Source of the DNA: a virus
Taxonomy: Duplodnaviria; Caudoviricetes
Reading direction: 5' to 3' (one strand)
DNA length: 50,167 nucleotides
IMG/VR virus record: IMGVR_UViG_3300028581_000003
Coordinates: 1 to 50,167 of that record
Shown here: positions 1-48,900 of the stretch, in pieces
Position numbering within the stretch: position 1 is the stretch's first letter
How the letters are laid out: the number at the start of each line of letters is the position of its first letter
The notes under the pieces: model-generated
What the model saw: only the letters and a program-made list of their open reading frames with translations
Told to the model about the DNA's origin: nothing
The model's database searches: none
Made by a program: the position numbers and the translations under genes

Positions 1-127
1 ATATAATTCGAATCAATGTAAGAAGCTGTTCCTGGAACAGTTGTATGTGAAAAGACACTTCCTAAAGAATTATACATTGTCATTGTAATGTTTTTTATCA
101 TAAAGTTATCTGTGATATTGGCAGTAA
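1..127. repeat. Terminal direct repeat copy 1 (circular assembly overlap)
   Basis: Bases 1-127 (atataattcg...gcagtaa) are identical to 50041-50167; 127 is a common assembler k-mer size, implying a 50,040-bp circle. Confidence 0.97.
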
Positions 128-3100: not shown

Positions 3101-3683
3101 TTTTTGAAAAAGAATGAGATGAATAAGAAACAAAGTTTTCAGAAAGAGTGATATTGGAAATTTTAGAAAATGAAGAACCATTCCAATCAAAAGTAATAAG
3201 ATTATTATCTGATGGATTAATATATAAAACTCGAGAAGAATTAATGGTTAAAAGAGAATCGAGATACCCTGAAAGAGAAGTGGAAAGATTAAATCCGCTC
3301 CCTATGAAATCAAGAGAACTTCCTGTAAAATTAAGAACTCTGAGCTGACGATAACCGCCAATAGAAGAAACAACAAAAAGTTTTGAAGAATCAATGGCAG
3401 AAATAGTGTCATATTTAGTAATAGGAGAAAATCTTTGTTCATAAAAAAAAATCCAGGAAGAGCCATTCCAATCATAAAGTTCTATATCAACTTTATTAAG
3501 ATCAGTGCAAGCACTAGAAATGGCAATTCTAGAAGAATTCATTAATGCCAAAGATAATGTGCACCCTGTATTTTTAACAGAAGAACTTTGTCCAATTTCA
3601 GTAATTGCAGAACTCACGAATCCAATTAAAAAAATGCAAACTAAAAGTAAAAGGATTGTCCTAGCGGTCCTTTCTTTTCTCAT
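1..3683 (-). CDS. N-terminal part of a giant (~2,604 aa) secreted surface glycoprotein; continues across the circular junction into 45909..50040
   Basis: ATG at 3683 overlaps the upstream TGA (ATGA); reads MRKERTARTILLLLVCIFLIGFVSSA (signal peptide); absent from the track, consistent with running off the edge without a stop; in frame with the 45909..50141 ORF (3683 and 101 are both 2 mod 3); ~45-aa repeats with [FY]DWNG[ST]S at ~2910-3480. Confidence 0.9.
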   Translation of the reverse strand, partial: MRKERTARTILLLLVCIFLIGFVSSAITEIGQSSSVKNTGCTLSLALMNSSRIAISSACTDLNKVDIELYDWNGSSWIFFYEQRFSPITKYDTISAIDSSKLFVVSSIGGYRQLRVLNFTGSSLDFIGSGFNLSTSLSGYLDSLLTINSSRVLYINPSDNNLITFDWNGSSFSKISNITLSENFVSYSSHSFSKINSSRIVLSFDDYLQIYDWNGSSWNHFYNKSLADGQISMLNQTRLFYSASDSSDLRLFDWNGTSFNQVLTDDDFSNSGYLNTIASVNSSTIVHVEDGYPNYIRTYGVNVDVCSQNLINTSKSSWINISCSSNQMNQSRNWTQYDANVCGTYTNQTFFEYQLNGTCNARLDFLSLNKFTNVFESLINISGSGYSIYLQISDFIKSFWYKDALLIGNSAYLNKTNNSIENDQISLPRWMDVYRIGFFYFNVPKGASITEASFNLTAEQIEVVSKYCVQQQANATHVNDTAGCTFNFTGGSYSSSGYWNDGVWGNYETIEEDSYSNINFFINYTIPSNISTLSFNYTHSYYDINFNSSLSTLVFFPNGYMCPIGESEAPEYFVGEKFYSNYAFENSYRYSDQCSSNSIVMIPYSCLLKSNNKLELNYKNSTVMIDEMPNDVIEIFCKNNSGDWISFNYDDVYWDDETSKFIFSEEAITWAMKGYSNASNIKIRTGNVGEGIAYNMTANLTNVRTPNIESSLNNYLRDGKTYCYQEQTDVNKEGDTDCDNRYFGSYSSIGNFTDGNHSTFIYPIYTYPSENTVFNITYSKPANLSFAGANFNIHYNNGTDVYKSIAIQDICFNDSNYLVLNFDVANQEPFEGDSYIKTRCKYKNEWILIDEIEQDYVEGSGGGSGLKLYEENITWFTSEGSCTADENGNCQIPIVIYSDTAGKINLSSINLTYQVPMENITQELRDALALGNCNCSGCEIIGNNCSIPISFYSSEEGEINYTLTLNSDVYRPVVVTLTPDNQTYNNQTQNYSANITSQFNITNATLNIYNSTGGIINTTFFDSFADLTQTVVSILVNLADGIYTWFWSVFDINGNEGVSQNTTLTIATSVPEINIVSPTEENTANKSQTWIFFNTTIVDDNFKNVTYYLYNSTGLKNTTSYVAKIESINFTGLPQGTYIYFSKAYNTNNNFAFSENRTINLDTSSPNVTLLLPANNSYSNNRSQNLTANITDNFMIKNITMTMYNSLGSVFSHTTVPGTASYIDSNY

Positions 3684-18760: not shown

Positions 18761-20944
18761 TTAGTTTTCTTTATCAATAATATTTTCAGAAAGGTCCAAT
18801 TGTTCACTTGTCTTTGGTTTTGATTGAATTTCTTGAACAGCGGCATATTTTCCATAACGAGGATTAAATAATTGAGATTCTTTAACTAATTCTTCAATAT
18901 ATTTTAAAATTGTGAATTCTGTTAATTCGGTGGATTCTTTTGCATTATCGACAATCTCCTTTCTTGAGCATTCTTTTTGTTCTTTTACGAAATTTATAAT
19001 TTCTTGTTTAATTTTTTCTTTGTAGTTCAAAATTTTCTTGAATTCACTTGATCTAAATGATGTTTTCTTTTCATTATCATCTTTTGTAACTTCGATCATT
19101 ATATTATTAGCAATATTTCCATCTCTATTCTTTACTCCTAAATTGATGGCTAAATTGAAGTGTAAGACTTTGTTATCGACAGAAATTGACTCATTTCCTT
19201 TTGTAACTAAATAGGCCCCATCAAATAAAGCTACAATATCAGAGGAACCTCGAAAAGCATCCAATAAATCCTCATCTTCGACTTCGCCTAACTTAATTTT
19301 CTTTAAATGATGGATAATAATAATTGTTTTCTTTAATTCGGACAAAGGTTTTAAGAAATTCAAGTAGAATCCATTTGTAATTTCGGAGTCATTTTCAGAG
19401 CCTTCTAAAAATCTTCTAAAAGAATCAAAGACAATTACATCATAGGGAAAACATTTTGCTAATTCTTTTGTTAATTCTTTTTTATCAAAATCAAAAGAAA
19501 AATCAAATGGAGTTGGATTTTCGTTAAACTTTTGTCCTTTCACAAAATATTGAAGTCTTTGTGCATTTCGATCTTCTCCATTTTCTAAATCATAATATAA
19601 GATAGAAGGGTCTGTTGGAATGTCAAATTTATTAAGAAACTTTCGATTTTCTAATTTTGTTCCTACGCACATTGCAAGGACAAAAAGAGATTTGCCCTTT
19701 CCACCTTTTCCACCAATTAAAAGAGTTTTTCCTTTTGGAAGAATTTTGTCAATGATGTATTCATTTTCAATAACTTCTTTATTTGCTAAATTGAAAGCAG
19801 ATATTGGTTTGATCTCCGTTTTTTTATTTTCAATTTTTTTAATTTCTTCAAAGATTGTTTTCTTTGTAATCATTAGCGCATAAGCAACTTTGCCAACTAA
19901 ATATTCTCTTATAATAACATCTTTGATTTTTGCAATTCTTCTAAGAACAGAGTCTCGTTCATCCAGTAGTATTGATTTGTTTGGATTATTAAGTTCTAAG
20001 ATTAAAGCTGTCACATCTTTGTCCAAGTTCAAATCCAAGATTATTCCTTTTAAATCATAAATATCCTCTGTTTCATTAGAGTATTCTCTTGCCCATTTAT
20101 TAATTTCCCATTTATTATATTCTTTTAATTCACCAGTTAAAGCTTTTTTATACCATCCTTCAAATACCTTATAAGGAATATCGGGCATAAGTCTAGTTAA
20201 TAATTCTTGAATTTTTTCTCGAATTTTTTCATTTGATAAACCACTTTTTGCACTTGCAATTGCTAAATTCTTTAAAACAATGTTGTTTCTTGATGTTCCT
20301 AATGGCAAAATTTCTGTTCTTTTCTTTAAATATTTCCAAAATTCGTCTTTTGAGAAAAAGTTTAAAGAATCTTCATTATTACTATCTCCAGAGATTTGAT
20401 TCATTAATTCTAATGATCTTTTATTATTTTCGATATTTTCTTTTGCAATATTAAGAGTTGAAGTTTTCAATTCGTTTATTCCTTCAAAATAGTCTAAGAT
20501 AGGAAGAACTTTATTTATTTTGAAATGAGGTTTTCCTGGAATTGAAATAACACCATTAAGAGAAACCTTTGCCTCATCTGCACCAAAACCTCTTACAAAG
20601 ATTCTTCGAATCTCCTCAATTAATTCATCCGAAAAAGTTTCTAGTTTTTCAAAAGGTGCATAAATATGGTAGCCATGCGGACTTCTATCCGCCAGAAATG
20701 CAGTTATTCCTTTATTGATTAGTCTTTCTCTAAATTCGTGATAATGTAATAGAATTTCTTCTTCTGTTAAATCTTTTAGATCAATATCAAAAACAATATA
20801 TTTTCTTGCTGGAATTCCCAAATTCATTTGTTTTTTGTCGGCTTCTGATAATTCTTCCCATTTTTTCCAAGTAGGCCAGAATGTTTTTGTGATTTCGTTT
20901 CGATATGTAAATTTACCTGTTTTTGTATCAAAATCAAATTCCAT
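18761..20944 (-). CDS. AEP primase fused to RecA-like (AAA_25/RepA-type) helicase with C-terminal winged-helix-like region
   Basis: FDIDLK (DxD) and SPHGYHIY primase motifs; Walker A GGKGGKGKS, YYDLEN, Walker B IVFDS, IIHHLKK, FRGSSDI; likely start MEFDF at 20944. Confidence 0.85.
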   Translation of the reverse strand: MEFDFDTKTGKFTYRNEITKTFWPTWKKWEELSEADKKQMNLGIPARKYIVFDIDLKDLTEEEILLHYHEFRERLINKGITAFLADRSPHGYHIYAPFEKLETFSDELIEEIRRIFVRGFGADEAKVSLNGVISIPGKPHFKINKVLPILDYFEGINELKTSTLNIAKENIENNKRSLELMNQISGDSNNEDSLNFFSKDEFWKYLKKRTEILPLGTSRNNIVLKNLAIASAKSGLSNEKIREKIQELLTRLMPDIPYKVFEGWYKKALTGELKEYNKWEINKWAREYSNETEDIYDLKGIILDLNLDKDVTALILELNNPNKSILLDERDSVLRRIAKIKDVIIREYLVGKVAYALMITKKTIFEEIKKIENKKTEIKPISAFNLANKEVIENEYIIDKILPKGKTLLIGGKGGKGKSLFVLAMCVGTKLENRKFLNKFDIPTDPSILYYDLENGEDRNAQRLQYFVKGQKFNENPTPFDFSFDFDKKELTKELAKCFPYDVIVFDSFRRFLEGSENDSEITNGFYLNFLKPLSELKKTIIIIHHLKKIKLGEVEDEDLLDAFRGSSDIVALFDGAYLVTKGNESISVDNKVLHFNLAINLGVKNRDGNIANNIMIEVTKDDNEKKTSFRSSEFKKILNYKEKIKQEIINFVKEQKECSRKEIVDNAKESTELTEFTILKYIEELVKESQLFNPRYGKYAAVQEIQSKPKTSEQLDLSENIIDKEN

Positions 20945-21215
20945 TTTTTTCTTTCCAAAGTTTAAATATAAGAAGTGCTTCATCTTGTGTAATCTCTTTT
21001 CTTCTTGAGACTTCTAATGTTTGAATACCCGAAAACATGATGGGAAATTCCTTTTCGATAACCACATCAAAAAATTTAATAAAACTTTCTTCAACCTCTG
21101 TTATAAATCCATTGTATGCAAAGACTTTTTGAGAATTAATTCTTTCTTGAATGAAAGAAAATGTTAACTCTTTTTTATATGTCTCGGCTTTTACTTTAAT
21201 ATCGTATAATATCAT
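20934..21215 (-). CDS. Hypothetical protein upstream of primase-helicase (start moved to MILYD)
   Basis: ATG 21215 is at the genome-wide TATA spacing (box at ~21237-21244). Confidence 0.65.
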   Translation of the reverse strand: MILYDIKVKAETYKKELTFSFIQERINSQKVFAYNGFITEVEESFIKFFDVVIEKEFPIMFSGIQTLEVSRRKEITQDEALLIFKLWKEKNGI

Positions 21216-22226: not shown

Positions 22227-22694
22227 ATGAATATCTTTGTATTGGACACAAATCCAGAGAAAGCAGCAATTGCACAGTGTAATAAACACGTTGTTAAAAT
22301 GCCTTTAGAGGCTACACAAATGTTATGCACAATTTTTAATTTGCATAATATAAAGGCCCCTTACAAATCGTGTCATTCAAAACATCCTTGCACTCTTTGG
22401 CTATCAAAATCAATGAATAATATCGATTGGCTGATTCTTCACACAAAAACTTTATTTTATGAATATACAATAAGATACAAAAGAGTTCATAAATCTGAAC
22501 AAGTTTTGGATTGGTGTATTAAAAATAAGGACAAACTACAAATTCCTTATATCGGATTGACTCCATTTGCTCAAGCAATGCCTGAGCAATATAAAAATAA
22601 GGATGCTGTTATTGCTTATCGAGCATATTATCAAAATGATAAATTAAAAATTGCAGTATGGCCAGAAAATAAAAGCCCGGAGTGGATAAAATGA
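22227..22694 (+). CDS. Pyrimidine-dimer DNA glycosylase/endonuclease V (DenV)-like protein
   Basis: MNIFVLD..P..AA...NKHVVKMPLEATQML...HPCTLW...FAQAMP...AYRAYY family pattern. Confidence 0.8.
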   Translation: MNIFVLDTNPEKAAIAQCNKHVVKMPLEATQMLCTIFNLHNIKAPYKSCHSKHPCTLWLSKSMNNIDWLILHTKTLFYEYTIRYKRVHKSEQVLDWCIKNKDKLQIPYIGLTPFAQAMPEQYKNKDAVIAYRAYYQNDKLKIAVWPENKSPEWIK

Positions 22695-23002
22695 CAAAAG
22701 ACGCAAAAAATGGCGACTATTTTATAAAAGCTTGTCAAATGGTTTCTGAAAATCCAACTTTTGTTTTTTGTTATGCAAAAGTTCTAGGTCAAGGCCCATT
22801 GACCGGAATTCGATTTCATCATGCATGGGTTGAATTAAGAGATGTTGTTTTTGATTATTCAAATGGAAATAATATTGTTTTAAGAAAAGAATTATATTAT
22901 GAAAAAGCAAATATTGAAGAACAAGATGTTGTTAAACAAACTTCCAATGAAGTTATTTTGTTAATGCTACAAACAGGAACATATGGAGGTTGGATAAAAT
23001 GA
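22691..23002 (+). CDS. Hypothetical protein with HAWVE motif (transglutaminase/papain-like fold; expected catalytic Cys apparently replaced)
   Basis: GDYF (homologues typically GDC[YF])...HHAWVE...VFDYSNG. Confidence 0.55.
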   Translation: MTKDAKNGDYFIKACQMVSENPTFVFCYAKVLGQGPLTGIRFHHAWVELRDVVFDYSNGNNIVLRKELYYEKANIEEQDVVKQTSNEVILLMLQTGTYGGWIK

Positions 23003-23400
23003 ATATTATTGATGTAACTCCCGAAGAAGTTGAAAAAGAAGTTCAAGCTTTACAACCAAAGGACACAATGGATTTACTTTTGAAAATTGGCAAAGAATAT
23101 ATGCAAAAGTATCAATCTGAGCCCATTGATATTGATACAAAAGAAGGTCAAAAAGAATTTAGAAGAATAAGTTGTTATTTAATTGAGGAATTGATGGAAA
23201 TGCAAAATTGTTTAAAAATTAGAGAATGGTCTATTTCTGAATACCCGGTTGATCAACAACATTTCGCCGAGGAATTTGCAGACTTTTTTAATTTTGTTAT
23301 GCAAATCCCTCTGTTGTTAGGATATGAAGAAGAAAAAATTAAAGATATTATTATTCGAAAAAGAATTGTTAATAAATTTAGACAGGAGAGTTCATATTAA
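22999..23400 (+). CDS. MazG-like/dimeric dUTPase-type all-alpha nucleotide pyrophosphatase
   Basis: IEELMEM...W...EEFADF acidic motifs; GGAGG SD. Confidence 0.8.
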   Translation: MNIIDVTPEEVEKEVQALQPKDTMDLLLKIGKEYMQKYQSEPIDIDTKEGQKEFRRISCYLIEELMEMQNCLKIREWSISEYPVDQQHFAEEFADFFNFVMQIPLLLGYEEEKIKDIIIRKRIVNKFRQESSY

Positions 23401-23402
23401 AT

Positions 23403-24137
23403 ATGCGAATTTTTAAGAATTTCAAACAGCTTATTCAAGAATTACCACGAGAAGTTTTTACTAGAGGTCAAGAGGTTTTTGATAAGTCTGTTCAAGGAAA
23501 AATTGTAACACAAGGCGAAGGCTTTGAACAAAAAGAATTATTTGGAATGTCGTATATGATTAATGATTTTTCAGATCGAGACGAAATGATGTTCTTAGCT
23601 CAAAAAATGTTTAACAAAGAGCATTTAACAAAGGAAGTTGCAGAGCAATGGTTTTGGGATATGATTCACAATCCAACAACAAAAGAAACTTGGTTTGATA
23701 AAACTCAATACACAAAAGAATACTTTGAGAAATTTTGTAATGAAAATAATTCCGGGACATCTGCATATGGATATGGAGAAAGAATTATTCCTCAATTAGA
23801 TTCTTTAATAAAAAGATTAAAAGGAAATTTATACGCAAGAGGAGCCTATATTGCAATGCATGATAATCGAGATATTCATAGAATAGGTCGTAGAATCCCC
23901 TGCACGCTGTCTTATGGTTTTGCTGTTAGAAAAACATTAGCCGGGGATAAAATGAATATGTTTTTACATATGCGGAGCCAGGATTTAGTTAATTTTATGA
24001 CTCTTGATTTATATAAGGCAACATTATTTCTGGAATATGTTGCAAAAGAACTAAATGTAAAGACGGGAAAACTTATTGTTTATGTGGATTCACTCCATGC
24101 ATACAAACGGGATGTGCCCTCTAGTGTAACTTGGTAA
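23403..24137 (+). CDS. Thymidylate-synthase-fold enzyme, probable dCMP (hydroxy)methyltransferase
   Basis: YGYGERI, RIPCT (catalytic Cys), MRSQD, SLHAY; Asp (TLDL) at the position equivalent to E. coli TS Asn177. Confidence 0.8.
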   Translation: MRIFKNFKQLIQELPREVFTRGQEVFDKSVQGKIVTQGEGFEQKELFGMSYMINDFSDRDEMMFLAQKMFNKEHLTKEVAEQWFWDMIHNPTTKETWFDKTQYTKEYFEKFCNENNSGTSAYGYGERIIPQLDSLIKRLKGNLYARGAYIAMHDNRDIHRIGRRIPCTLSYGFAVRKTLAGDKMNMFLHMRSQDLVNFMTLDLYKATLFLEYVAKELNVKTGKLIVYVDSLHAYKRDVPSSVTW

Positions 24138-24649
24138 CAAACGATTATTTGAATATTTTAATCTATTTTTGTGAAAAAGCAAAAAAGAAAGGGCAGTTAT
24201 TAATTTTTAATGATGTTTCTTTGCTTTCTTTTGTTCCAAGAATTGTTCACGAAGATGCGATTCTTCCTTTTATTAATATAAATATTGACAAAAAGAAAAA
24301 GTATATCTTAAAAACATATTATAGCGGAGAAATAACAAAAAAGAATCCTTGTATAGAATCCATATCAAATAATAAAATCTATTTTAGAAGTTGTCGAGTT
24401 TTTCCAACATTTTTCATAGATTTACTTGTAATTGAACAGTTACAATACCATAAAAAACTACTTGAAATCAAAAAGATGTTCATCGGTTATCACATCTTAG
24501 GCCTGGAAAAACTTTTCAAAGAATTTGATATTGTGATTCAAAACCCGGACTATTATTTAGTTTTAGAACATTGGAAAAAAAGATTTGCAAATGAGAATTT
24601 GAAACTAGAAATGTTAAAGAAATATAAGGGGTGGTTGAATGGAAAATAA
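24131..24649 (+). CDS. Hypothetical protein, possibly degenerate TS-fold partner
   Basis: NPCI...IYFRSCRVFPTFFIDL mirrors the PC / RSxD....xDL spacing of the upstream gene; start codon uncertain. Confidence 0.5.
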   Translation: MVTNDYLNILIYFCEKAKKKGQLLIFNDVSLLSFVPRIVHEDAILPFININIDKKKKYILKTYYSGEITKKNPCIESISNNKIYFRSCRVFPTFFIDLLVIEQLQYHKKLLEIKKMFIGYHILGLEKLFKEFDIVIQNPDYYLVLEHWKKRFANENLKLEMLKKYKGWLNGK

Positions 24650-27110
24650 AAAAGGTGTTTTCTTCAATGTTGAGCAATGTCAAATAGGAGGAGACTCTTG
24701 TGGATTAAGATTTTTAGGAAGATGGGAAGATAAGTCAAAAATGGATTTTATTACAAAAGGTCAAAAACCATATTTTTATATTTTAGAAGATGAGGCCTCT
24801 TTAATTACTTTTGCCTGTAAAAAAGAATATGGATTCATGAGTATTTACAACGACAAATTGATTAAAATTATTTTCGATAATCCTTTTGATACATGGACTT
24901 TTAAATCTTTATTTACAAAAACATTTGAAGCAGATGTTCATTATTCTTTGAAGTATCTGATCGACAAAGATTTGTATGATGGAATAGAAGTTAAGAATAA
25001 CGAAGTTAAGAATAACGAAGTTTTTCATTCTGAAATTGATGTTGAGCCAAGAGTTATGATTGTAGATATTGAAACAGATTATGTTGGAGGGTCAAACTCT
25101 GATATGATGAGACCAATTATTTCAATTGCTTTTTATGATAATTATACAAATAAATTATATTGCATTGCAACAAAAGATGACAAAGAAGTTTTTGAAAAGA
25201 AATATCTTTCGACTCAAAAAGAATTAAAAACAGAAATTGAAGTTGAATTACAAGTTGTAACTTCAGAAAAACAACTACTGGAAATTTTCAAAAAGTTTGT
25301 AATTGATTTTGATATTGACATTTTTACGGGATGGAATGTCAATTTTGATATGATTTATATTTTACATAGACTTGCAACTTTGAACTTAAATGTCAGTGAA
25401 ATGTCTCCTTTGCGGAAAATTTCATACTCAACAGAGTATGTTGTCTCCGGAGAAAAACAAGCAAAATATGCTACGGGTAAACATGAAAAGAAAGTCAATA
25501 TTAAAGGACGAGCTATTATTGATTTGATGGCGGGTTACAAAAGAATGAAATGGAAGTCTGTTCCTTCCGGTAGTCTGGAGGCTGTTGGACAAGTTGAATT
25601 TAAAACAGGAAAGATTCAATATAAAGGATGGATTCACGACTTTTGGCTTTCTGATTTTGATAAATTTATTGAGTATAATATTCGAGATGTTGAAATTTGT
25701 ATAGCTTTAAACAAAAAATATAATATTCTTAATTCACTATTAGGAATTAAAAAAATGTCTGGTTGTGAATTAGCAGATATTTTACAAAATAGTAGAATTA
25801 TTGACACATACATTTTAAGAAATTGTAAAAATAAAATTATACTTCCATCAAAAAATTACGCAAAAGACTACGATGCAATTGAAGGAGGATTTGTTTTAGC
25901 TCCTAGATCTGGTATAAGTAAAAACATTGTTGTTCTGGATTTAAAGTCTTTATATCCATCTATTATGTTAAGTTTTAATATGTCTCCGGAAACTATTGAT
26001 TTAAATGGTGAAATAAGTGTTGGAAATGGAATCAAATTCAAAAAAGAAACAGGCATACTTAAACATATTTTACAAGATATTTTAGATAAGAGAGATGGGG
26101 TAAGAGCACTTTTGAAAACACCTGAGTATGATAAAGAAAAATATCCCGAAAAATATTTAACAATGTATAAGAAACAATACTATTATAAAACTTTTCAAAA
26201 TTCCTTCTACGGCGCCACGCTTTATCCAGGTTTTAGATTATTTAATCCTGACATTGGAAAATCAATTACATTTGTTGGAAGATTTTTGAATGAAAAGATG
26301 CGAGAACTTTGTATAAAAAAAGGTTATGAAGTTATAACTGCAGATACAGATTCGGTTTATGTTGATGTTCACGAAGAAAATTCTGAAAAAGCAATTGCTA
26401 TTGGAAAACAATTAGAAGATGACATCAATCACTCTTTTGCAACTTGGTTTGCGGATAAGGGAAATGATGCAAGTTTTATTAGTATTAAATTCGAAAAATT
26501 ATACGGAATTTATGCAAATGCCGGTGGCAAAAAGTGCTATGCAGGAAATATTGTCTGGGATTGGGAAAAAGGAATGTTGGATGTTCCAGAAATGGAGATC
26601 AAAGGATTTGCAACGGTTAAGAGTGATCGAAGTTTAGTAAGTAAAAAAATTCAAAAAACTGTGATTCAAATGATTTTAGCAGAAAAAGATACAAAATCAA
26701 TTATTGCTTTTATTTATCAAGAAATTGATAAGATTTATGCAAAAAAATATACTTGGGAAGAAATCGGAATTCCAAAAGCTATTTCAAAGGATTTAGATGA
26801 GTATAAGATTTCAAATCCTTGGATTGATGGAGTAAGATATTCTCTCGCAAATGTAAACGGATTTACATTTTCTCCAAAACCTTATTTGTTATATGTTAAA
26901 AAATCGAATAAATACAAAACATCTTGTTTTTGTTTTAATAATACTTGGGAAGTTCCTGATGATTTGCCAATTGATTGGGAAAGCATGTTATTAAAAAGTA
27001 TTGCAAAAATTGTTGAAAAGCTATTTGAAATGCTTCATGTTGAACCAAAAGTAGTAGACATCTATATAAAAAATAAATTAACAAACCAAAGATTCTTAGA
27101 TTCTTTTTAA
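24639..27110 (+). CDS. polB: Family B DNA polymerase with 3'-5' exonuclease
   Basis: DIETD, GWNVNFD, YNIRD exonuclease motifs; DLKSLYPS, KTFQNSFYG, ADTDS polymerase motifs. Confidence 0.95.
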   Translation: MENKKGVFFNVEQCQIGGDSCGLRFLGRWEDKSKMDFITKGQKPYFYILEDEASLITFACKKEYGFMSIYNDKLIKIIFDNPFDTWTFKSLFTKTFEADVHYSLKYLIDKDLYDGIEVKNNEVKNNEVFHSEIDVEPRVMIVDIETDYVGGSNSDMMRPIISIAFYDNYTNKLYCIATKDDKEVFEKKYLSTQKELKTEIEVELQVVTSEKQLLEIFKKFVIDFDIDIFTGWNVNFDMIYILHRLATLNLNVSEMSPLRKISYSTEYVVSGEKQAKYATGKHEKKVNIKGRAIIDLMAGYKRMKWKSVPSGSLEAVGQVEFKTGKIQYKGWIHDFWLSDFDKFIEYNIRDVEICIALNKKYNILNSLLGIKKMSGCELADILQNSRIIDTYILRNCKNKIILPSKNYAKDYDAIEGGFVLAPRSGISKNIVVLDLKSLYPSIMLSFNMSPETIDLNGEISVGNGIKFKKETGILKHILQDILDKRDGVRALLKTPEYDKEKYPEKYLTMYKKQYYYKTFQNSFYGATLYPGFRLFNPDIGKSITFVGRFLNEKMRELCIKKGYEVITADTDSVYVDVHEENSEKAIAIGKQLEDDINHSFATWFADKGNDASFISIKFEKLYGIYANAGGKKCYAGNIVWDWEKGMLDVPEMEIKGFATVKSDRSLVSKKIQKTVIQMILAEKDTKSIIAFIYQEIDKIYAKKYTWEEIGIPKAISKDLDEYKISNPWIDGVRYSLANVNGFTFSPKPYLLYVKKSNKYKTSCFCFNNTWEVPDDLPIDWESMLLKSIAKIVEKLFEMLHVEPKVVDIYIKNKLTNQRFLDSF

Positions 27111-27721: not shown

Positions 27722-27879
27722 AAGATTGGATATATGTTTTGTGGGCAATCACATCAGGAGTATGTCTTTCATTTTCATTTTACGCTGTTTCTTCTTGGGT
27801 TAGTCTTTCTTGTCTAATTATAGGAACATTTCTTGTTTATACTCTGGGCGTTATAGTAGGATGGGAGACAATGAAATGA
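27718..27879 (+). CDS. Small two-TM membrane protein (53 aa, not in track)
   Basis: MKDWIYVLWAITSGVCLSFSF...; ATGA overlaps on both sides. Confidence 0.6.
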   Translation: MKDWIYVLWAITSGVCLSFSFYAVSSWVSLSCLIIGTFLVYTLGVIVGWETMK

Positions 27880-28799
27880 AAGAATTTCGTCCAATGCTCG
27901 CTCCTAATGACAAGGTCGATTTATCAACTATAAAATATCCTTTACTAGCATCAACAAAGTTAGATGGCATAAGAACAATTTTTATAAATGGAAAAATGCT
28001 TTCAAGAAGTCTGAAAGAAATTCCAAATAAACAATTGCAAGAAAAATTTCAACCGTTAAAAGACTTTAGTAAAGTGCATAATGTAATTCTTGATGGAGAA
28101 ATCTATGGACATGGTTTAACATTCCAACAGATCACACATTTTGTAATGACAGAGGATTTAGAACATGAACAATTGCCTAATGAACTAAAATTTAATTGTT
28201 TTGATTGTATTTATAAAGATCAAATCGATATGGAGTTTTGGACTAGAATCGTATATTGTAATAAACTAGAAATAGAATTTCCATTATTAGTTTTTACATT
28301 AATTCAACAAGAAGTTCGAAATCAACAAGACACAGAAGAATTATTTGAAAATGTATTAAAAGATGGATTTGAAGGTTTAATTCTAAAGAATCCACAATCT
28401 AAATATAAGTTTGGAAGAGCAACATTAAAATCTGGGGATATGTATAAAGTAAAACCATTCTTAACTTTTGATGCAAAGATCATAAGAGTCGAAGAAAGAA
28501 TGGAAAATACTTCAGAAAGTTATAAAAACGAATTAGGAGACTCACAAAAGCATCATTGTAAAGATGCAATGATTCCAACAGGAATTGCCGCATGTTTTGT
28601 AGTTAATTATGAAGGACAAGAACAAAAAGTTTGTTTGACAGGATTAGAAAGTTTTCGAAAAGAAATTTGGAATAACAAAGAAAATTATATTGGAAAAGAA
28701 ATTGAATTTAAAGGAATGTTAGTTGGAGCAAAAGATTTAGTAAGACATCCTACATTTATTCGATTTCGAAATGATAAAGATGGTAACGAAAAAGTTTGA
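27876..28799 (+). CDS. lig: Minimal ATP-dependent DNA ligase
   Basis: PMLA, KLDGIR (motif I), LDGEIY, FNCFD, EGLILK, KVK, RHPTFIRFR; start moved to MKEFR. Confidence 0.93.
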   Translation: MKEFRPMLAPNDKVDLSTIKYPLLASTKLDGIRTIFINGKMLSRSLKEIPNKQLQEKFQPLKDFSKVHNVILDGEIYGHGLTFQQITHFVMTEDLEHEQLPNELKFNCFDCIYKDQIDMEFWTRIVYCNKLEIEFPLLVFTLIQQEVRNQQDTEELFENVLKDGFEGLILKNPQSKYKFGRATLKSGDMYKVKPFLTFDAKIIRVEERMENTSESYKNELGDSQKHHCKDAMIPTGIAACFVVNYEGQEQKVCLTGLESFRKEIWNNKENYIGKEIEFKGMLVGAKDLVRHPTFIRFRNDKDGNEKV

Positions 28800-30007: not shown

Positions 30008-30745
30008 TTAAATAAAAGTATCGCCATAGATTTGTCGAATTTGTTCTTTTTCTTTCGGAGTAAATGAATCTGATTGGGAATAATGTTCATATTGTGTAAT
30101 TAAGTTATGTCCAAATCGGGTAGATAATTTCATACTATCAACTCCAATCGACAATGCCCAATTCTCAGACGTTTTTCTTATACTATGAATTGATAACATT
30201 TTATAGTCTTTTACTTTTGCTTTTTCTAGGGCTTTCTTTAAAGCTTTATGTGCGGCAGGTTGTGAAAGTAATCCTAATTCATTTTCTCTATTTAGATTAT
30301 TGTCATTAATTACTTTTCGAAGATCTTTGATCAATTCTCTAGATACACGAATTGTTCTGGTTTTACTTTTATTTTGTATATTGTCGCCATGTCTTCTTTT
30401 AGTTACTTTAAGAACTAATCTTTGATTTGGAAAGTCGATGTCTTCTACTTTAATGTGTTGAGCTTCATTAATTCTGGCACCAGTTAATAATAAGACTTTG
30501 AATGTGAAAACCTGATGCTCTTTTAGATTAGAAAGTAAATTGAACCATTCATCGGGATTAAGTATTCTATCACGATTTGATCTTACACTATATTCTCTTC
30601 CATCCGATTTGATTCCTATTGCTACTTCTTCATTTGAGAAGTCAAGAAAGAGTTTAGTCTTTCCACATTCACAAATTAACTCATTATCTTTTCTGAGCCA
30701 AACATGTTTGTGTGTCGTATCCATTTGTTGTGTTAAAGAATTCAA
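30008..30745 (-). CDS. Tyrosine recombinase/integrase (catalytic domain, short N-terminus)
   Basis: TGARINE (R), KVTK (K), HSIR (HxxR), FGH, EHY (Y). Confidence 0.9.
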   Translation of the reverse strand: MNSLTQQMDTTHKHVWLRKDNELICECGKTKLFLDFSNEEVAIGIKSDGREYSVRSNRDRILNPDEWFNLLSNLKEHQVFTFKVLLLTGARINEAQHIKVEDIDFPNQRLVLKVTKRRHGDNIQNKSKTRTIRVSRELIKDLRKVINDNNLNRENELGLLSQPAAHKALKKALEKAKVKDYKMLSIHSIRKTSENWALSIGVDSMKLSTRFGHNLITQYEHYSQSDSFTPKEKEQIRQIYGDTFI

Positions 30746-31622: not shown

Positions 31623-32082
31623 ATTAATGATAAAGAAAGGTGGTCCTTTCGGCTATTCTTGGTATAGACATGTTGAAGTTCCAGGAGGAAGACTGTTAAT
31701 CGATGAAACCTCGTCTATAAAAACAGAAGGACAACTAGCAAACTTAATTAGCAAGAAGTGGGGACAAGGAAGATATCAAATACTAGCTTGGCAAGGGGGA
31801 TATGAAGGATTCTGGCTATTTTGGCTTGGAGAAATAGGAGAGAATGGCTTCTTAAGAGAAAAGAATGTCAACAAAGACTTGAAAAAAGCCAAAGAAGAGT
31901 ATCAAAAGCGAATGACAGAAGTCGAAACTTATGAAGAAAAAAAAGAATTGGTCGAAGAGATGGAAGACGATTTAAGCTTTGAAAGAGAGTTTGCAAAAGA
32001 CACAAAATCTTCTAAAAGAAGAGGTCCAATGGGAATTAAAACAAACCGTCCTGGAGAATGGCATAGATTTGAGGAGTATTAA
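31609..32082 (+). CDS. Hypothetical protein upstream of ATPase
   Basis: AGGAG SD before MKPIK; Trp/Gly-rich N-terminal domain and coiled coil. Confidence 0.7.
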   Translation: MKPIKLMIKKGGPFGYSWYRHVEVPGGRLLIDETSSIKTEGQLANLISKKWGQGRYQILAWQGGYEGFWLFWLGEIGENGFLREKNVNKDLKKAKEEYQKRMTEVETYEEKKELVEEMEDDLSFEREFAKDTKSSKRRGPMGIKTNRPGEWHRFEEY

Positions 32083-33530
32083 TGGTTAAGAAATTCTTTA
32101 AAACAACTCCTTTGAAGACTTATTATCCAAATTCAGATTTAGAAGGTCCGATTTTCATTTTTGGTCGTATGGGTGGCGGTAAATCTGTCTCTGCAAAATC
32201 AATAATTGAAGGTTTTCATGACAACAAAGGATATAAGGTTTGGGATTTGTATGGTGGAGAAAGAAATGAGGGATTATATTGGACAACTCCTTCCACTGAA
32301 AAGACTTATTGGGACAAGCTTAAAATACTTGCAAAGTTTTCTGAAGAATTTCCAAAACAATATAAAGTAAACATGTTATATCCTTATTTTGAAAGTGGAG
32401 CTGTAAAAAAGCTTCCAATAAAGAAAGTTGGAGAAGAATTTGTTGTTAATTCAAAGTATTTTACGATATCCATTAAAGACATAACAGTAGATGACATAAA
32501 AATGGTCATTGGAAATCCTTCAGAGAACTCTAAATTTCATTGGGAAGAATTGCAAAACAAATTGGATAAACACGACAATGTTCAAGCTTTGGATTATTAC
32601 TCAGAAAAACAAAAGTGTGATACAACTATTCTTTATAAAAACTTTATTCTTCCAATGATCAGAGAAAGGTTTTTGCAAAGTGAATATTGTTCTACGAACA
32701 TTGATTTAATATCAGAAGCTAAAAATCAAGAAGCAATAACTGTGCTGTGCTTAGATTTTGTTCCTGAAAAGTTTCATCTATTCGTGATTAATTATTTTTG
32801 CAGTCGTTTGTCTGACTTAATTGATGACAATAAAATTCCCAAAAAGAATATTGGATTTATTAGAGAAGCAGCGACATTCTTTAGAGCGACAGATGATGCA
32901 GTCATAGAAGACAGATTGAAAATTTTCAAAAGCAACATGGCTCATTATATACGAATGGGACGTCGTGGTTTCTATTTTTGTCTCGATTGTCAGAGTCCAT
33001 ATGAAGTAAAAGGATTAGTTGAAGGAGCATCTGATTATGTTATGATGTTTAGGACTTCGTCTACAAGAGACAAAGATGAAATGTGTGCTGAACTTATAAA
33101 AACAGGGCGTATGTTAAGAGCACAAGCAAATGAATTGGATATGCTTGAAAAAGGACAGTGTTTTATTGCTGAATCAGGAGCTCCTATAGTTAGAAAAGTT
33201 CAGGTCATATTGCCAAGATCTGCGTTTTGGAAAAAAGAATTTCCTAATTTTTATAAAACCTTTTGGGAAAGTCATGGTGGTGATTGGAAAGTGGTAACAG
33301 AAACAATGGACATGATTGAAGAAGAAACGAAAAAGATTAAAGAAAAATATAAGCAGAAAAGAGAAGAAGAAAGCCAAAAGAAAAAGAATTTAAAAGAAGA
33401 ATACGGAGATGATTCAATGGCTGAAGAAACAGAAGGAGAAGAAGTTGAAACTGAAAACAGTGAAGTTCCAGAAGCAAAAATAATGCCACCTGTTATGAGC
33501 ATGAAAGACTTTTTTGGAGGAAGAAGATGA
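32082..33530 (+). CDS. FtsK/HerA-superfamily P-loop ATPase (putative genome packaging/extrusion ATPase)
   Basis: Walker A GRMGGGKS; Walker B FIREA; arginine-finger-like RMGRRG; conserved Gln in LDCQS; acidic tail. Confidence 0.8.
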   Translation: MVKKFFKTTPLKTYYPNSDLEGPIFIFGRMGGGKSVSAKSIIEGFHDNKGYKVWDLYGGERNEGLYWTTPSTEKTYWDKLKILAKFSEEFPKQYKVNMLYPYFESGAVKKLPIKKVGEEFVVNSKYFTISIKDITVDDIKMVIGNPSENSKFHWEELQNKLDKHDNVQALDYYSEKQKCDTTILYKNFILPMIRERFLQSEYCSTNIDLISEAKNQEAITVLCLDFVPEKFHLFVINYFCSRLSDLIDDNKIPKKNIGFIREAATFFRATDDAVIEDRLKIFKSNMAHYIRMGRRGFYFCLDCQSPYEVKGLVEGASDYVMMFRTSSTRDKDEMCAELIKTGRMLRAQANELDMLEKGQCFIAESGAPIVRKVQVILPRSAFWKKEFPNFYKTFWESHGGDWKVVTETMDMIEEETKKIKEKYKQKREEESQKKKNLKEEYGDDSMAEETEGEEVETENSEVPEAKIMPPVMSMKDFFGGRR

Positions 33531-34003: not shown

Positions 34004-34385
34004 AGACAAGCAGAAAGATATTTATTTTTTCTCGGTTTGTTTACTTGTCTTGCTTTTATTAACTCTCGGAGACATTCTTTCAACTTATCTGGCTCTAAGT
34101 GTAGGAGCTCAAGAAGGAAATCCAATAATCGCAAAATACTTTGATGATTATGGATTAGAACTTGGATTGATACCAATGTTTTTTCTTCAAGTTAAAACAC
34201 ACTTAATTGTTTTGATTTTGCCTCATTTAATTAATCTCTTGTATGTTTATTTACGAAGAAGTCATCTAGAATATCATGATAGAAAATGGATTCATATTTG
34301 TCAAATAGTTATTGTCTTGCTTGGAATTTATACATTTGTTCCAACCATAATAAACAATTTTAGAATATTTTTTTCGTATTTATAA
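33996..34385 (+). CDS. DUF5658-like membrane protein
   Basis: DILSTYLAL..GAQEGNP motif, multiple TMs, terminal NN; AGGAG SD. Confidence 0.65.
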   Translation: MFKDKQKDIYFFSVCLLVLLLLTLGDILSTYLALSVGAQEGNPIIAKYFDDYGLELGLIPMFFLQVKTHLIVLILPHLINLLYVYLRRSHLEYHDRKWIHICQIVIVLLGIYTFVPTIINNFRIFFSYL

Positions 34386-34455
34386 CAGATGCTGGATTTG
34401 AACCAGACTTCAAGGTTATGAGCCTTGTGTGCTTGCCAGATTACACCACACTGTT
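34383..34455 (-). tRNA. tRNA with CAT anticodon (Met or Ile2), atypical acceptor/T-stem junction
   Basis: AACAGTG TG GTGT-AATCTGGCAA-GCAC A CAAGG-CTCATAA-CCTTG AAGT CTGG-TTCAAAT-CCAG CATCTGTT A; no encoded CCA. Confidence 0.85.
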
Positions 34456-45908: not shown

Positions 45909-48900
45909 TTAGATAAAGATAATTGCTATAAAACTTATGATTACAGAGATTGCTATGCTTAAGAACAGTCTTATCTCTTTCAAAATCTTCATCTTTCGAA
46001 AAACAATATAATTGAAGAAAAAATATGAAATTAGAGAAAAGAGTGCAAAAATAATAAAGTAAGGCACTTTAATTACTTTTCCAAATATTGTAAGTTCTTT
46101 GTCTTTTCCAAGTTTAATTACAGTCTCGACGATTTGAGTTCCAGGAGCTCCAACTATTATTTTTAGAGTAATAATTGCATCTTTATTCTTTGCATCAACT
46201 GCTCTAATGTTGAGAAAATATTCTCCTTCTGTAATGTCTATCGGCAACTTTATTGAAAATGTTTTTTCAGTTATAAAATTGGATTGAACAGGCAATACAA
46301 ATGAGCTAGATTCAAAAGATAACCAAGAACAAGAGCTTAAACTTGAATTAGTAACTGAGCACTCTAATTTTATTGTTTGCTCTATCGTTCCTAAGTTTTC
46401 AAATTCAAAAGTTCCTGTTCTTTCTGCTCCTTGTGACATCTGAAAGTCAAATGCTTTTGTTTTTATTGACCATTTGCTTTCATTTGTATCTCCAACAACT
46501 ATTGTTGTTCCTCCGCTACCACCATTACTTCCCGGATTATTAATCACATCATTTTCCTGTGTTATTATAAAATCAGAATATGTTTGTCCAAGCAATCCAA
46601 GTGTATCATTTGCAAAAAGATTTATTCTATATTTCCATCTGCTTTCAGTATCATCCGGAGCTGCTAAAGTTATTGAAATGTTTTCACAATTTGCTAGACT
46701 TGTATTTGAAACTTTAGATTGCAAAGACGAAGTTAAGTTTTCTACATTATACCAACAAGCAGAAACTTGTGAGCGATTGATGGTGTGTTTAATTTGCATA
46801 AGATACTCTGTTAATTGTGAAACAAACACTGCATCGAATTGAGGCGTTGTTATTTCAAATCCAGGAGAGTTAATTTTAACAGATCTATTTGGTGTTATAG
46901 AGCAATAATCCAAGACATCACAAGCTTCTACATTAAACGTGTAATTGCCTGCTGTTAATCCATCAAAATAATGAAAGTTTGTTTCTGAGTTGTAAACTGT
47001 TGTTGCCACATTATTATTTTCATCAAATATTCTATAAGTTATGTTTTTGAAATTGTCATCATAAACAAACACATGAGCAAAGACTTGCCTTGTGTTGTAT
47101 AAATTTCCAAGTGATGATGTTGATAAAAAGTATAACTCCAAAGGTCTATTAATTGTCATTTTTCTCAGTTCTGTTGAATTTTGATTTCCAACAATATCGG
47201 ATGTATTAACTTGATAATAATAAATGTTTGAAGATAAGTTTGTGAAATTGTAAAATAAGGTATCATTTGTGAAACTTACATTTTTGACCAAGGACATGGA
47301 AATGTTGTAAAGACTAAATGTTATATTCTTTGGATTTATTTCTGTTCTGGAAATATTTACAAATATGCTGCTTTGATTTGTTAAAGTGTCATTTGCAGGT
47401 GTGTTTAATCCAAAAGATATTAATGGATTTTGAGAGTTTGTGTTTATTGTAAAGCTTCTTGAAAAATCCTCAGTGGAATAAGATGTATAATTTAAAGAAA
47501 CTTTGCTTAAATTCAAATAACCAGATCTAGAGGAAAATATTTCAATAGGAATTGTGCAATTTGAAAATGAAGTGCAGTTTGCAGATATAAGTGAAACATT
47601 CGTTGAACTTGAATGAAACTCTAAGGATGAAGATGCATTTGAGTATACAGTCTGACCACCAACTTTTATACTTACATTGCTTAATGCTTTGTATGTTGTT
47701 GTTGGAAGCCAAATTCCATCATTGCTCGAAAGCAATCCAGAGTCAACACCTATTAATTGAGCCTGAGTTGCAAAACCATATCTATTACTTCTTTCAGGGG
47801 CAACATATGGAGTTGTTAAGGTTATTGGATTATTTCCTATATTAAAAAAGCTCTTATCCACAGATACACAATACTTTCCAAAATTATAACAAGAACTTCC
47901 GCAAACATCTATTTCCCCACTTGTCCATGTTTTAACATTTACACCATTTACTGCCATGGTTATTGATTGAGAAGACTCTTGACATGCTAACATACAAATG
48001 CTTATATTGTTGTTTTCATATTCATCCCAATATGTATCACTTGAAATTGGTAGATTGTATGAGTTTGAAGTTGAATCAGAATAAGCTCCAATCATGTTAT
48101 CAGGAGCATAAGGAGAACATGTATCAAAAATGGTGTCATTAAATCGTGCAGTTGAAATGTTTGTCTTTTGAGATGAAAAGTTTAATAAGAAATTTGTTGC
48201 ATTGTAAAAGTTATTTGCTTTTATGTAGACTCTTGTTGTTTGATTTGCAGTTATAGGTAAAAATTTAGAAGTTGTCGAATCATTAAAGCCATTCAAAGAT
48301 ATGTTTGATCTGTCAAGTTTTTTCATCTCTACTTCAGAGGATACATCTTTCTTTAGTGAAAATAAAAAGTTAAATATCTTTTCTCCAACTCCAATTAACT
48401 TTTGAACTCCATCGACAAACCATTGAAAAGCACTCTCTTCGTCTTCTTCACCTTGATAAGTAAAGGTTACATTTGCATTTTCTTCCCAAGTTGAATTTCC
48501 CTCAACTTGCAAAACACAAGCTGTTGAGTTGCAAATGTTTGTTTGATACGGTGAATAAAATTCTCTTAATTCGGTCGAGTTTATATTTCCTGCCAAATCT
48601 TGAACATATGCTTTAATTGTATGATTTCCAGATTCAAATGTTTTATTGTAGAAAATGCTTGTTGAATTGTATAGTGCCATTATTTCTTGTGAGTCTAGAC
48701 TTCTATTAAAAATCATTACATCGTCTATTGAGCCGTTATAGGGAGATGCCCCATCACCACGATAACCTATTTGTCTTAAAATAGCAGGATTATCAAAAGT
48801 GTTGTTGATCATAACAGGAGAACCTATTGAACCATCAACACCACCGGTCATATGTGTTCCATTATAAGTATAAGTAATTAAATGCCATCCGGGATTCGTT

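Follow-up and report, generated by a model that had tools for sequence, protein, structure and literature searches.

The sequence analysed here, a stretch of 50,167 bp that we call the window, is the whole of the tailed-virus record IMGVR_UViG_3300028581_000003, classed in IMG/VR as having direct terminal repeats and as 100% complete. Six genes on its plus strand, between positions 22227 and 27110, form a tightly packed block in which neighbours overlap by 7-13 nt or stand 2 nt apart (stop/start pairs 22694/22682, 23002/22990, 23400/23403, 24137/24131 and 24649/24639), and all six coupled open reading frames (ORFs) named in the original prediction on this DNA are present. Four of them are central to this analysis: an all-alpha nucleoside triphosphate (NTP) pyrophosphohydrolase of the MazG, dimeric dUTPase or T4 gp56 type (22990..23400), a thymidylate synthase (TS)-fold enzyme of 244 aa with a dCMP-type active site (23403..24137), a 172-aa protein, here ORF5, from a rare family that by predicted structure derives from the TS fold and lacks its N-terminal half (24131..24649), and a family B DNA polymerase (polB) of 823 aa (24639..27110; PF00136 E 4e-43, PF03104 E 6e-18, phrog_262 E 2e-111). 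We consider it fairly probable, if well short of certain, that the genes of 22990-27110 make up a module for pre-replicative cytosine replacement, as in T4 or Xp12, which supplies polB in a complete 50-kb tailed virus. Gene families were assigned by Pfam and PHROG scans of 70 window ORFs.

The product of 23403..24137 belongs to the Pfam family Thymidylat_synt (PF00303; 54.4 bits where 24.3 are required, E 1.4e-14), a membership also seen in a six-frame search. It contains the motif HMRSQDLVNFMTLD, the last Asp of which falls, in a HMMER comparison with L. casei TS structures, on Asn229, the equivalent of E. coli N177; the best match in this comparison is itself the N229D mutant (1njc), and aligning the protein with E. 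coli ThyA in MAFFT puts this Asp at the same position. Among 5.8 billion clusters we found 28 homologues of 228-249 aa, 19 of which were aligned with the window protein (20 rows). Residues invariant in all 20 rows include C167, R191, S192, D194, D202, S230, H232 and Y234, and the invariant family residues map to E. coli C146, R166, S167, D169, N177, H207 and Y209 (D194 corresponding to D169 and D202 to N177); the equivalents of Tyr94 and Arg126 are also present in the window enzyme. Since the Asp at the N177 position occurs in 20/20 aligned members, it is no chance substitution, and the claim that an Asp stands where dUMP-specific TS has Asn is borne out. The same Asp is found in the TS-like genes of the related loci L002, L021/L022 and L024, which are described below.

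We then compared this position in E. coli ThyA, RB69 Td, T4 gp42, RB69 gp48 and the homologues from Xp12, SPO1, CPAS-15 and BF486P2. The enzymes that use deoxyuridine monophosphate (dUMP), namely E. coli ThyA, RB69 Td and the dUMP hydroxymethylase SPO1 gp29, have Asn, and T4 gp42, RB69 gp48 and the Xp12 enzyme have Asp. Because an archaeal peculiarity at this position had to be ruled out, we also examined cellular archaeal TS: 41 Methanobacteriota genomes were searched, 11 matched at E<=1e-10, and the 8 best loci (L110-L117) all carry Asn (8/8). At the position of E. coli H147 the window enzyme has Thr, as do T4 gp42 and RB69 gp48. According to two studies, N177D switches preference to deoxycytidine monophosphate (dCMP) (PMC13326640), and positions 177 and 147 discriminate best for modified-cytosine contigs in metaviromes (PMC8670742). 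The NCBIfam ThyA equivalogs all score far under their cut-offs with the window enzyme (best 48 bits versus 174.55), and its family has Asp in 20/20 rows where a ThyA is recognised by Asn177. From the Asp177 and non-His147 signature, dCMP can reasonably be inferred as the substrate class, and we propose that the product would be 5-methyl-dCMP or 5-hydroxymethyl-dCMP, formed by a folate-type one-carbon transfer to C5. The T4-type dCMP hydroxymethylases are defined by Asp177 plus an acidic residue at the L143 position (PMC13326640); the window enzyme combines Asp177 with an Arg at 143, which is invariant in its family and, among the compared proteins, common only to the CPAS-15 homologue and the homologue P0028. 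Seven of the eight archaeal TS (L110-L117, 210-222 aa) have Asp or Glu at the L143 position, and one has Tyr. If the alignment is right, the published rule that an acidic residue there means hydroxymethylation may fail outside bacteria and phages, and position 143 would therefore be no predictor of product.

In a maximum-likelihood tree of 26 rows, the 16 rows of the window family make up a well-supported clade (97/96), with all characterised enzymes outside it on long branches. Its nearest outgroup, CPAS-15 plus P0028 (91/76), lies under the support mark of the tool, and the clade is separate from ThyA/Td, Xp12, T4 gp42, SPO1 gp29 and RB69 gp48. The phylogeny called for in the original prediction thus sets the enzyme apart from ThyA/Td, but does not group it with known dCMP-modifying enzymes; as the clade lies outside all the characterised enzymes compared, the group added may be either methyl or hydroxymethyl.

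The pyrophosphatase gene (22990..23400, plus strand) matches phrog_12184, 'nucleotide pyrophosphohydrolase' (E 4.7e-14). Its true start is likely the ATG at 22999 (residue 4), because translation from there makes the gene overlap the preceding stop as ATGA and matches the start seen in the relatives. The acidic metal-binding motifs EExxE (residues 66-70) and ExxD (95-98) are invariant in an alignment of the three sequences from the window, L002 and L024. The earlier MazG-like assignment is in line with the PHROG match and with these motifs, whereas the match to Pfam dUTPase_2 stays below threshold (21.6 bits versus 22.9). A six-frame search of T4 with this protein returned a single marginal match (E 0.04), which lies inside gene 56 (annotated dCTPase/dUTPase), and the profile of the three viral pyrophosphatases aligns with the C-terminal 51 residues of gp56 (hhalign 76.9%, E 2.1e-5). 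It also matches the 'dUTPase' of the TS cluster of Clostridium phage CPAS-15 (E 2.5e-6). We propose that it acts as a dCTPase, possibly also as a dUTPase, which would supply dCMP and deplete dCTP, a specificity for dCTP being suggested by the context of the gene.

ORF5 (24131..24649, plus strand) has no family in Pfam, PHROG or NCBIfam. A word-indexed search found three relatives, and 20 representative clusters were retrieved at E<=1e-3 among 1.84 billion proteins, one of which, a 1432-aa Ig-repeat protein, looks spurious. The 18-row alignment used here combines 15 of the 20 clusters with the window protein, the relative P0031 and the L002 homologue, and leaves out P0036 (a partial plus a full copy), P0038 (a fragment), P0047, P0048 and P0049. 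Across the 18 rows K55, I59, Y63, C74, F85 and D97 are invariant, F91 and P92 nearly so, and position 86 is Arg in 15. Each hhalign alignment of ORF5 with the TS family gives one collinear pairing, in which C74 meets the catalytic Cys, R86 meets R166 and D97 meets the Asp at the N177 position; the spacing from Arg to Asp is 11 residues in ORF5 (R86-D97), in the window TS-fold enzyme and in E. coli ThyA (R166-N177). The equivalents of Ser167 and Asp169 are missing from ORF5, which has the motif FRSCR, with Arg at the Asp169 position. AlphaFold2 with the 18-sequence alignment produced a confident model (pLDDT 90.9, pTM 0.87; five models each ~90), which replaces an earlier run with 3 sequences in which 1/5 models was confident. 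Among the matches listed by Foldseek for this model in the PDB, 42/42 belong to the TS superfamily (TS, DHFR-TS, MilA and AfhB), with a best E-value of 0.055 and a best TM-score by query of 0.49 (AfhB). In BFVD three matches reach E<=1e-3 (4.3e-5, with a TM-score by query of 0.58, then 2.3e-4 and 4.3e-4), and the third bears the name thymidylate synthase; among the 50 matches listed, 14 are named TS or dCMP hydroxymethylase. We conclude from the predicted model that ORF5 has a TS-derived fold without roughly the N-terminal, cofactor-binding half, and that it keeps a Cys/Arg/Asp triad. A nucleotidyltransferase-like identity, offered by the ESM Atlas (0.92-0.94), was rejected: only 102-131/256 features are common and the Atlas model has a pLDDT of 0.36. 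In P0036 (387 aa), one of the proteins left out of the alignment, the C-terminal portion of one ORF5-like copy precedes another copy that is complete; the protein reflects a tandem duplication or else read-through between two neighbouring paralogues.

The arrangement of these genes recurs in related loci, which comprise an IMG/VR contig (L002) and six metagenome contigs with ORF5 relatives (L019-L024). As L021 equals L022 in the ORF5 gene and L023 and L024 are 98% identical, they represent, with the window, six distinct lineages. In L002, whose TS-like protein is 36% identical to the window enzyme, the order is pyrophosphatase, TS-like gene, ORF5 homologue (hhalign 96%, E 1e-9), uracil-DNA glycosylase (UDG) and polB. 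A TS-like gene lies directly upstream of ORF5 in 5/5 testable distinct lineages (window, L002, L020, L021=L022 and L024), L019 and L023 beginning less than 100 nt before ORF5 so that the upstream gene falls outside the contig. These upstream genes carry a common PC...RS.D...D signature; of the one in L020 only the C-terminal end lies on the contig. Directly downstream of ORF5 we found polB in the window, L019, L020 and L022, and UDG in L002, L023 and L024; the L021 contig ends 0.7 kb downstream of ORF5. In three loci (the window, L002 and L024) the pyrophosphatase gene stands directly before the TS-like one. Such recurrent order in distant viruses therefore defines a conserved unit of pyrophosphatase, TS, ORF5 and then, with or without UDG, polB. 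None of the best 80 cellular-genome polB loci has a TS-like gene, an ORF5 gene or a pyrophosphatase, and a search of genome contigs with the TS family alignment (A1) found no relative and no provirus. Against viral contigs, the single window TS-fold protein and alignment A2 each found no related locus, and A1 found only L002. The UDG between the ORF5 homologue and polB, seen in the more distant relatives, is of family 4 type (PF03167; L002:7378-7980, L023:746-1363 and L024:2313-2570). A fusion of UDG and polB is suggested for L021/L022, where the polB ORF (L022:1590-4142) is itself weakly similar to UDG (E 5e-5 to 8e-5). The window block has no UDG between ORF5 and polB and opens with a Pyr_excise-like gene.

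Taken with the Asp177/Thr147 signature, the gp56-like pyrophosphatase and this recurrent order, the best reading is the one originally put forward, a pre-replicative synthesis of a C5-modified dCTP. The pyrophosphatase would hydrolyse dCTP, and perhaps dUTP, to the monophosphate, depleting the canonical precursor and feeding the TS-fold enzyme. Cys167 of the latter would then attack C6 of dCMP, with Asp202 reading the 4-amino/N3 face of the cytosine, and a one-carbon unit would pass from a methylene-pterin cofactor to C5, yielding 5-methyl-dCMP or 5-hydroxymethyl-dCMP, if the substrate is the one that the residues point to. ORF5, with its Cys, Arg and Asp in a TS-like register, may act alongside this enzyme as a second catalyst or as a partner, a functional coupling suggested by the strict synteny of the two genes. 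Host kinases, or a viral kinase that we did not recognise, would make the triphosphate, and the adjacent polB would incorporate the modified nucleotide. The scans of the 70 window ORFs returned no kinase, glycosyltransferase, deaminase or DNA methyltransferase, in keeping with the earlier observation that neither a kinase nor a glycosyltransferase is apparent. Since no glycosyltransferase was found, a simple C5 group is to be expected and not a glycosylated hypermodification.

Several observations weigh against this reading. The Arg at position 143 is neither the Leu of ThyA nor the Asp or Glu of the hydroxymethylases, and the pyrophosphatase is just as compatible with being a dUTPase, since the weak matches of its profile in the PDB are dimeric dUTPases (E 0.03-0.3). 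For ORF5, hhalign against the TS family profile is not significant (1.6% and 2.2%), a profile search of the PDB gave 0 matches, and Foldseek gave no PDB match at E<=1e-3; the remnant TS motifs claimed for this gene are thus not upheld at the sequence level, and it is the structure prediction that brings out a TS-derived fold. No dNMP kinase appeared in the window scans, but many of the ORFs match nothing, so that one of them could encode a novel kinase; in published assays of 5hodC incorporation, the dNMP kinases of the phages were expressed together with the synthase, although the synthase alone gave a trace detectable by mass spectrometry (PMC13326640). The functional statements throughout depend on residues, folds and gene order. 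Finally, under a trinucleotide Markov model of the window, the palindrome GTAC is strongly avoided (1 observed versus 46.6 expected), and GCGC (2 versus 8.7), ACGT (12 versus 34.4) and GATC (69 versus 143) are also depleted, the dinucleotide ratios to expectation being 0.59 for CpG, 1.15 for TpG and 1.17 for CpA. This suggests host restriction systems aimed at these sites and implies that restriction enzymes still select on the genome, which would be unexpected if every C were shielded from restriction. Such avoidance speaks against a bulky modification that blocks all restriction, and is compatible with a small C5 group (5-methyl or 5-hydroxymethyl) tolerated by many enzymes.

Four alternatives or extensions were considered. 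The one that retains most weight, although we still judge it unlikely, is that ORF5 is a non-catalytic, degenerate subunit which pairs with the active TS-like enzyme in a heterodimer and so replaces the TS homodimer. It would account for the overlapping or abutting of the two genes in every testable locus, for the absence of the cofactor-binding half from ORF5 and for its loss of the Ser167 and Asp169 equivalents. In a purely structural subunit, however, there is no obvious reason why Cys74 and Asp97 should be invariant and positioned like TS active-site residues, and no TS-ORF5 fusion occurs among the 20 matches of an all-length HMMER search. As ORF5 keeps these two residues, the label 'degenerate' given to it originally may be wrong. 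A complex prediction for the TS-like enzyme and ORF5 scored 0.00 in two runs, which we take as no verdict and as evidence neither way. A bolder proposal, which we regard as speculative and rather improbable, is that ORF5 founds a new family of minimal TS-fold enzymes lacking the cofactor domain, and that its Cys74 and Asp97 would re-attack C6 of the cytosine nucleotide delivered by the adjacent TS-like enzyme and turn a C5 hydroxymethyl or exocyclic-methylene intermediate into an undescribed C5 substituent; cytosine would then be replaced by a new base, made at the mononucleotide level by two TS-fold proteins, in a virus probably infecting DPANN-type archaea.

It is more doubtful still that the genes serve ordinary thymidylate supply, a dUTPase providing dUMP and a divergent ThyA converting it to dTMP for a genome of 70% A+T, with ORF5 unrelated to nucleotide metabolism. 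Pairs of dUTPase and ThyA are common in phages, the weak Pfam and PDB matches of the pyrophosphatase are to dimeric dUTPases, the genome has ~30% G+C, and two of the TS-fold homologues are publicly named 'thymidylate synthase'. The active site does not fit, since Asp177 is present in 20/20 family members versus Asn in 8/8 archaeal and both bacterial and phage dTMP-forming TS, and Thr replaces His147; the family also stands apart from ThyA/Td in the tree, and ORF5, with its TS-like fold, is strictly syntenic with the TS-like gene. Least probable by far is a flavin-dependent 5-hydroxy-dCMP synthase of the AfhB or RB69 gp48 type: the closest solved structure by sequence is indeed the dCMP hydroxylase AfhB of phage HY126 (9iqu, E 4e-8), which has a similar length and the same HMRSQ, Thr147 and Asp177, but the D169N that marks these synthases (PMC13326640), and that RB69 gp48 carries as Asn, is absent from the window family, which keeps the Asp169 equivalent (Asp194, 20/20) and is therefore no 5-hydroxy-dCMP synthase, and the enzyme lies apart from RB69 gp48 in the tree and the genome scans found no glycosyltransferase or sugar-activation genes.

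Pre-replicative cytosine replacement has been well worked out in a few bacteriophages, namely T4, Xp12 and RB69/HY126, and the proposed cytosine-replacement module can be set against each. With T4 (gp56 and gp42) it has in common the pairing of an all-alpha NTP pyrophosphatase with a TS-fold enzyme in which Asp takes the N177 position and Thr the H147 position, and the proximity of the modification genes to a replicative family B polymerase. It differs in the residue at L143 (Arg in the window enzyme, Asp in gp42), in the absence of a dNMP kinase or glucosyltransferase from the window scans, and in the additional TS-fold paralogue ORF5; the two enzymes do not group in the tree, and phmmer from the window enzyme missed gp42 at E<=1. 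The Xp12 dCMP methyltransferase, which reportedly makes 5-methyl-dCMP such that 5-methyl-dC replaces dC, resembles the window enzyme in its TS fold, in Asp at N177, in keeping Asp169 and in needing no glycosyltransferase, but branches beside ThyA/Td, far from the window clade, and has Asn143 and Pro147. HY126 AfhB and RB69 gp48 are likewise small proteins (~235-245 aa) that use dCMP and have HMRSQ and Thr147, whereas the window enzyme is without D169N and the window scans showed no genes for arabinosylation or glycosylation. The TS homologue of the Clostridium perfringens phage CPAS-15 has the same Arg at L143 and Asp at N177, a homologous pyrophosphatase nearby and a cluster that adjoins a DNA polymerase gene; this cluster differs in adding a kinase-like gene and a glycosyltransferase, in using polA and in having no ORF5-sized gene after TS. 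The proposed module would be a version of the pre-replicative cytosine modification known from T4 and Xp12, with a TS clade outside the T4 hydroxymethylase, the Xp12 methylase and the AfhB hydroxylase, and with ORF5 as a new accessory protein family.

The CPAS-15 cluster (MN417334.1, 7460-18206), which holds the nearest TS homologue from an annotated phage, is annotated as 'shikimate kinase', dUTPase, glycosyltransferase and TS, then polA, and looks like an uncharacterised cytosine hypermodification cluster; a literature search found no paper on CPAS-15 DNA. In Bacteroides phage BF486P2 (OP172667.1) two divergent TS-fold genes lie 2 kb apart with dut between them, and in both Asp occupies the N177 as well as the L143 position.

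Our literature searches, supplements aside, found no paper on the window TS clade, on the ORF5 family or on archaeal viruses that modify dCMP with a ThyA-fold enzyme. Nor did they turn up a report of a Halobacterium phage whose genome is methylated at every cytosine. The distinct TS clade, marked by Asp177, Asp169 and Arg143, would extend the known range of cytosine-modifying enzymes, and the module sits in a lineage whose polymerase has archaeal affinity. ORF5, with ~20 clusters among 1.84 billion proteins, may represent a new subunit of a DNA base-modifying system or a new step in such a pathway, and the module enzymes could serve in making modified DNA.

An archaeal host seems to us plausible and somewhat more likely than not. 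The best full-length matches of polB in the phage database are haloarchaeal tailed viruses (~25% identity), and when the 80 best genome loci are ranked, most of the leading places go to DPANN archaea. In a quick polB tree the window falls within a 21-row clade (SH-aLRT 100) of 16 archaeal sequences, 4 viral or metagenomic ones and one short, bacterial-labelled contig from a metagenome-assembled genome (MAG). The latter, a 7.7-kb contig binned as Dehalococcoidia (JBAZEO010000096.1), holds the single best genome polB (30% identity) and is probably a mis-binned viral contig, because its polB groups with viral sequences inside an otherwise archaeal clade; the 5.5 kb upstream of this polB contain no TS-like gene, ORF5 gene or pyrophosphatase. 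The related contig L002 carries PriS-type primase, ERCC4-HhH and TrmB domains. The putative terminase of the window (32082-33530), used as query, had no match in the phage database or among 401 genomes from the phylum to which a Woesearchaeota MAG belongs. The description of the virus as archaeal is therefore favoured by the polB clade (16/21 archaeal), by the haloarchaeal-virus matches and by the L002 domains, but the genome scans gave no provirus or host link.

The first gene of the block (22227..22694, plus strand) encodes a 155-aa protein like those of the Pyr_excise (T4 DenV) family, passing the Pfam threshold of 23 bits (PF03013, 25.7 bits, E 1.5e-5), as the DenV-like glycosylase call had it; it matches phrog_624 at E 7e-52 and has no significant PDB sequence match. 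The second (22682..23002, plus strand) encodes the small 'HAWVE' protein (106 aa from GTG), a member of a widespread small phage and viral family with no assigned function and no family in Pfam, PHROG or NCBIfam. Its true start is likely the ATG at 22691 (residue 4), because this creates an ATGA overlap with the upstream stop and the ESM Atlas record also begins at residue 4. Its nearest Atlas clusters are viral (feature score 0.94-0.95, ~201/256 features common, structure TM 0.83-0.88), and some HAWVE-like clusters are auto-named 'McjB C-terminal domain-containing'. Neither gene was found in the seven related loci (L002, L019-L024), nor was the first found in the L002 record. The idea of one operon of six is consistent with the co-oriented, coupled genes of the window, but the DenV-like and HAWVE genes lie outside the conserved module (0/7 related loci).

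Elsewhere the window encodes an AAA_25 primase-helicase-like protein (18761-20983), an ATP-dependent DNA ligase (27810-28799), a tyrosine integrase (30008-30745), the putative terminase mentioned above, which is a weak match (phrog_2666, E 3e-4), an HNH endonuclease and tail-fibre-like proteins with a Laminin_G_3 domain; most of its structural proteins have no family match. Its G+C content is ~30% throughout. A single tRNA, tRNA-Met (CAT), lies at 34383-34455 on the minus strand; its acceptor stem begins with an A1:U72 pair and is mismatched at its base. The stretch is present in 10 lake-water metagenome runs, all from 2019 and possibly from a single campaign, 4 of these runs being possible sources. 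The terminal repeat is an exact one of 127 bp, and the open-ended ORFs 3-3683 and 45909-50165, both on the minus strand, share one frame across it. The ends of the record therefore look like assembly ends and not physical termini. If the genome is circular or concatemeric, the two ORFs would join into one gene of ~2,600 aa with Ig-like and Laminin_G-type domains.

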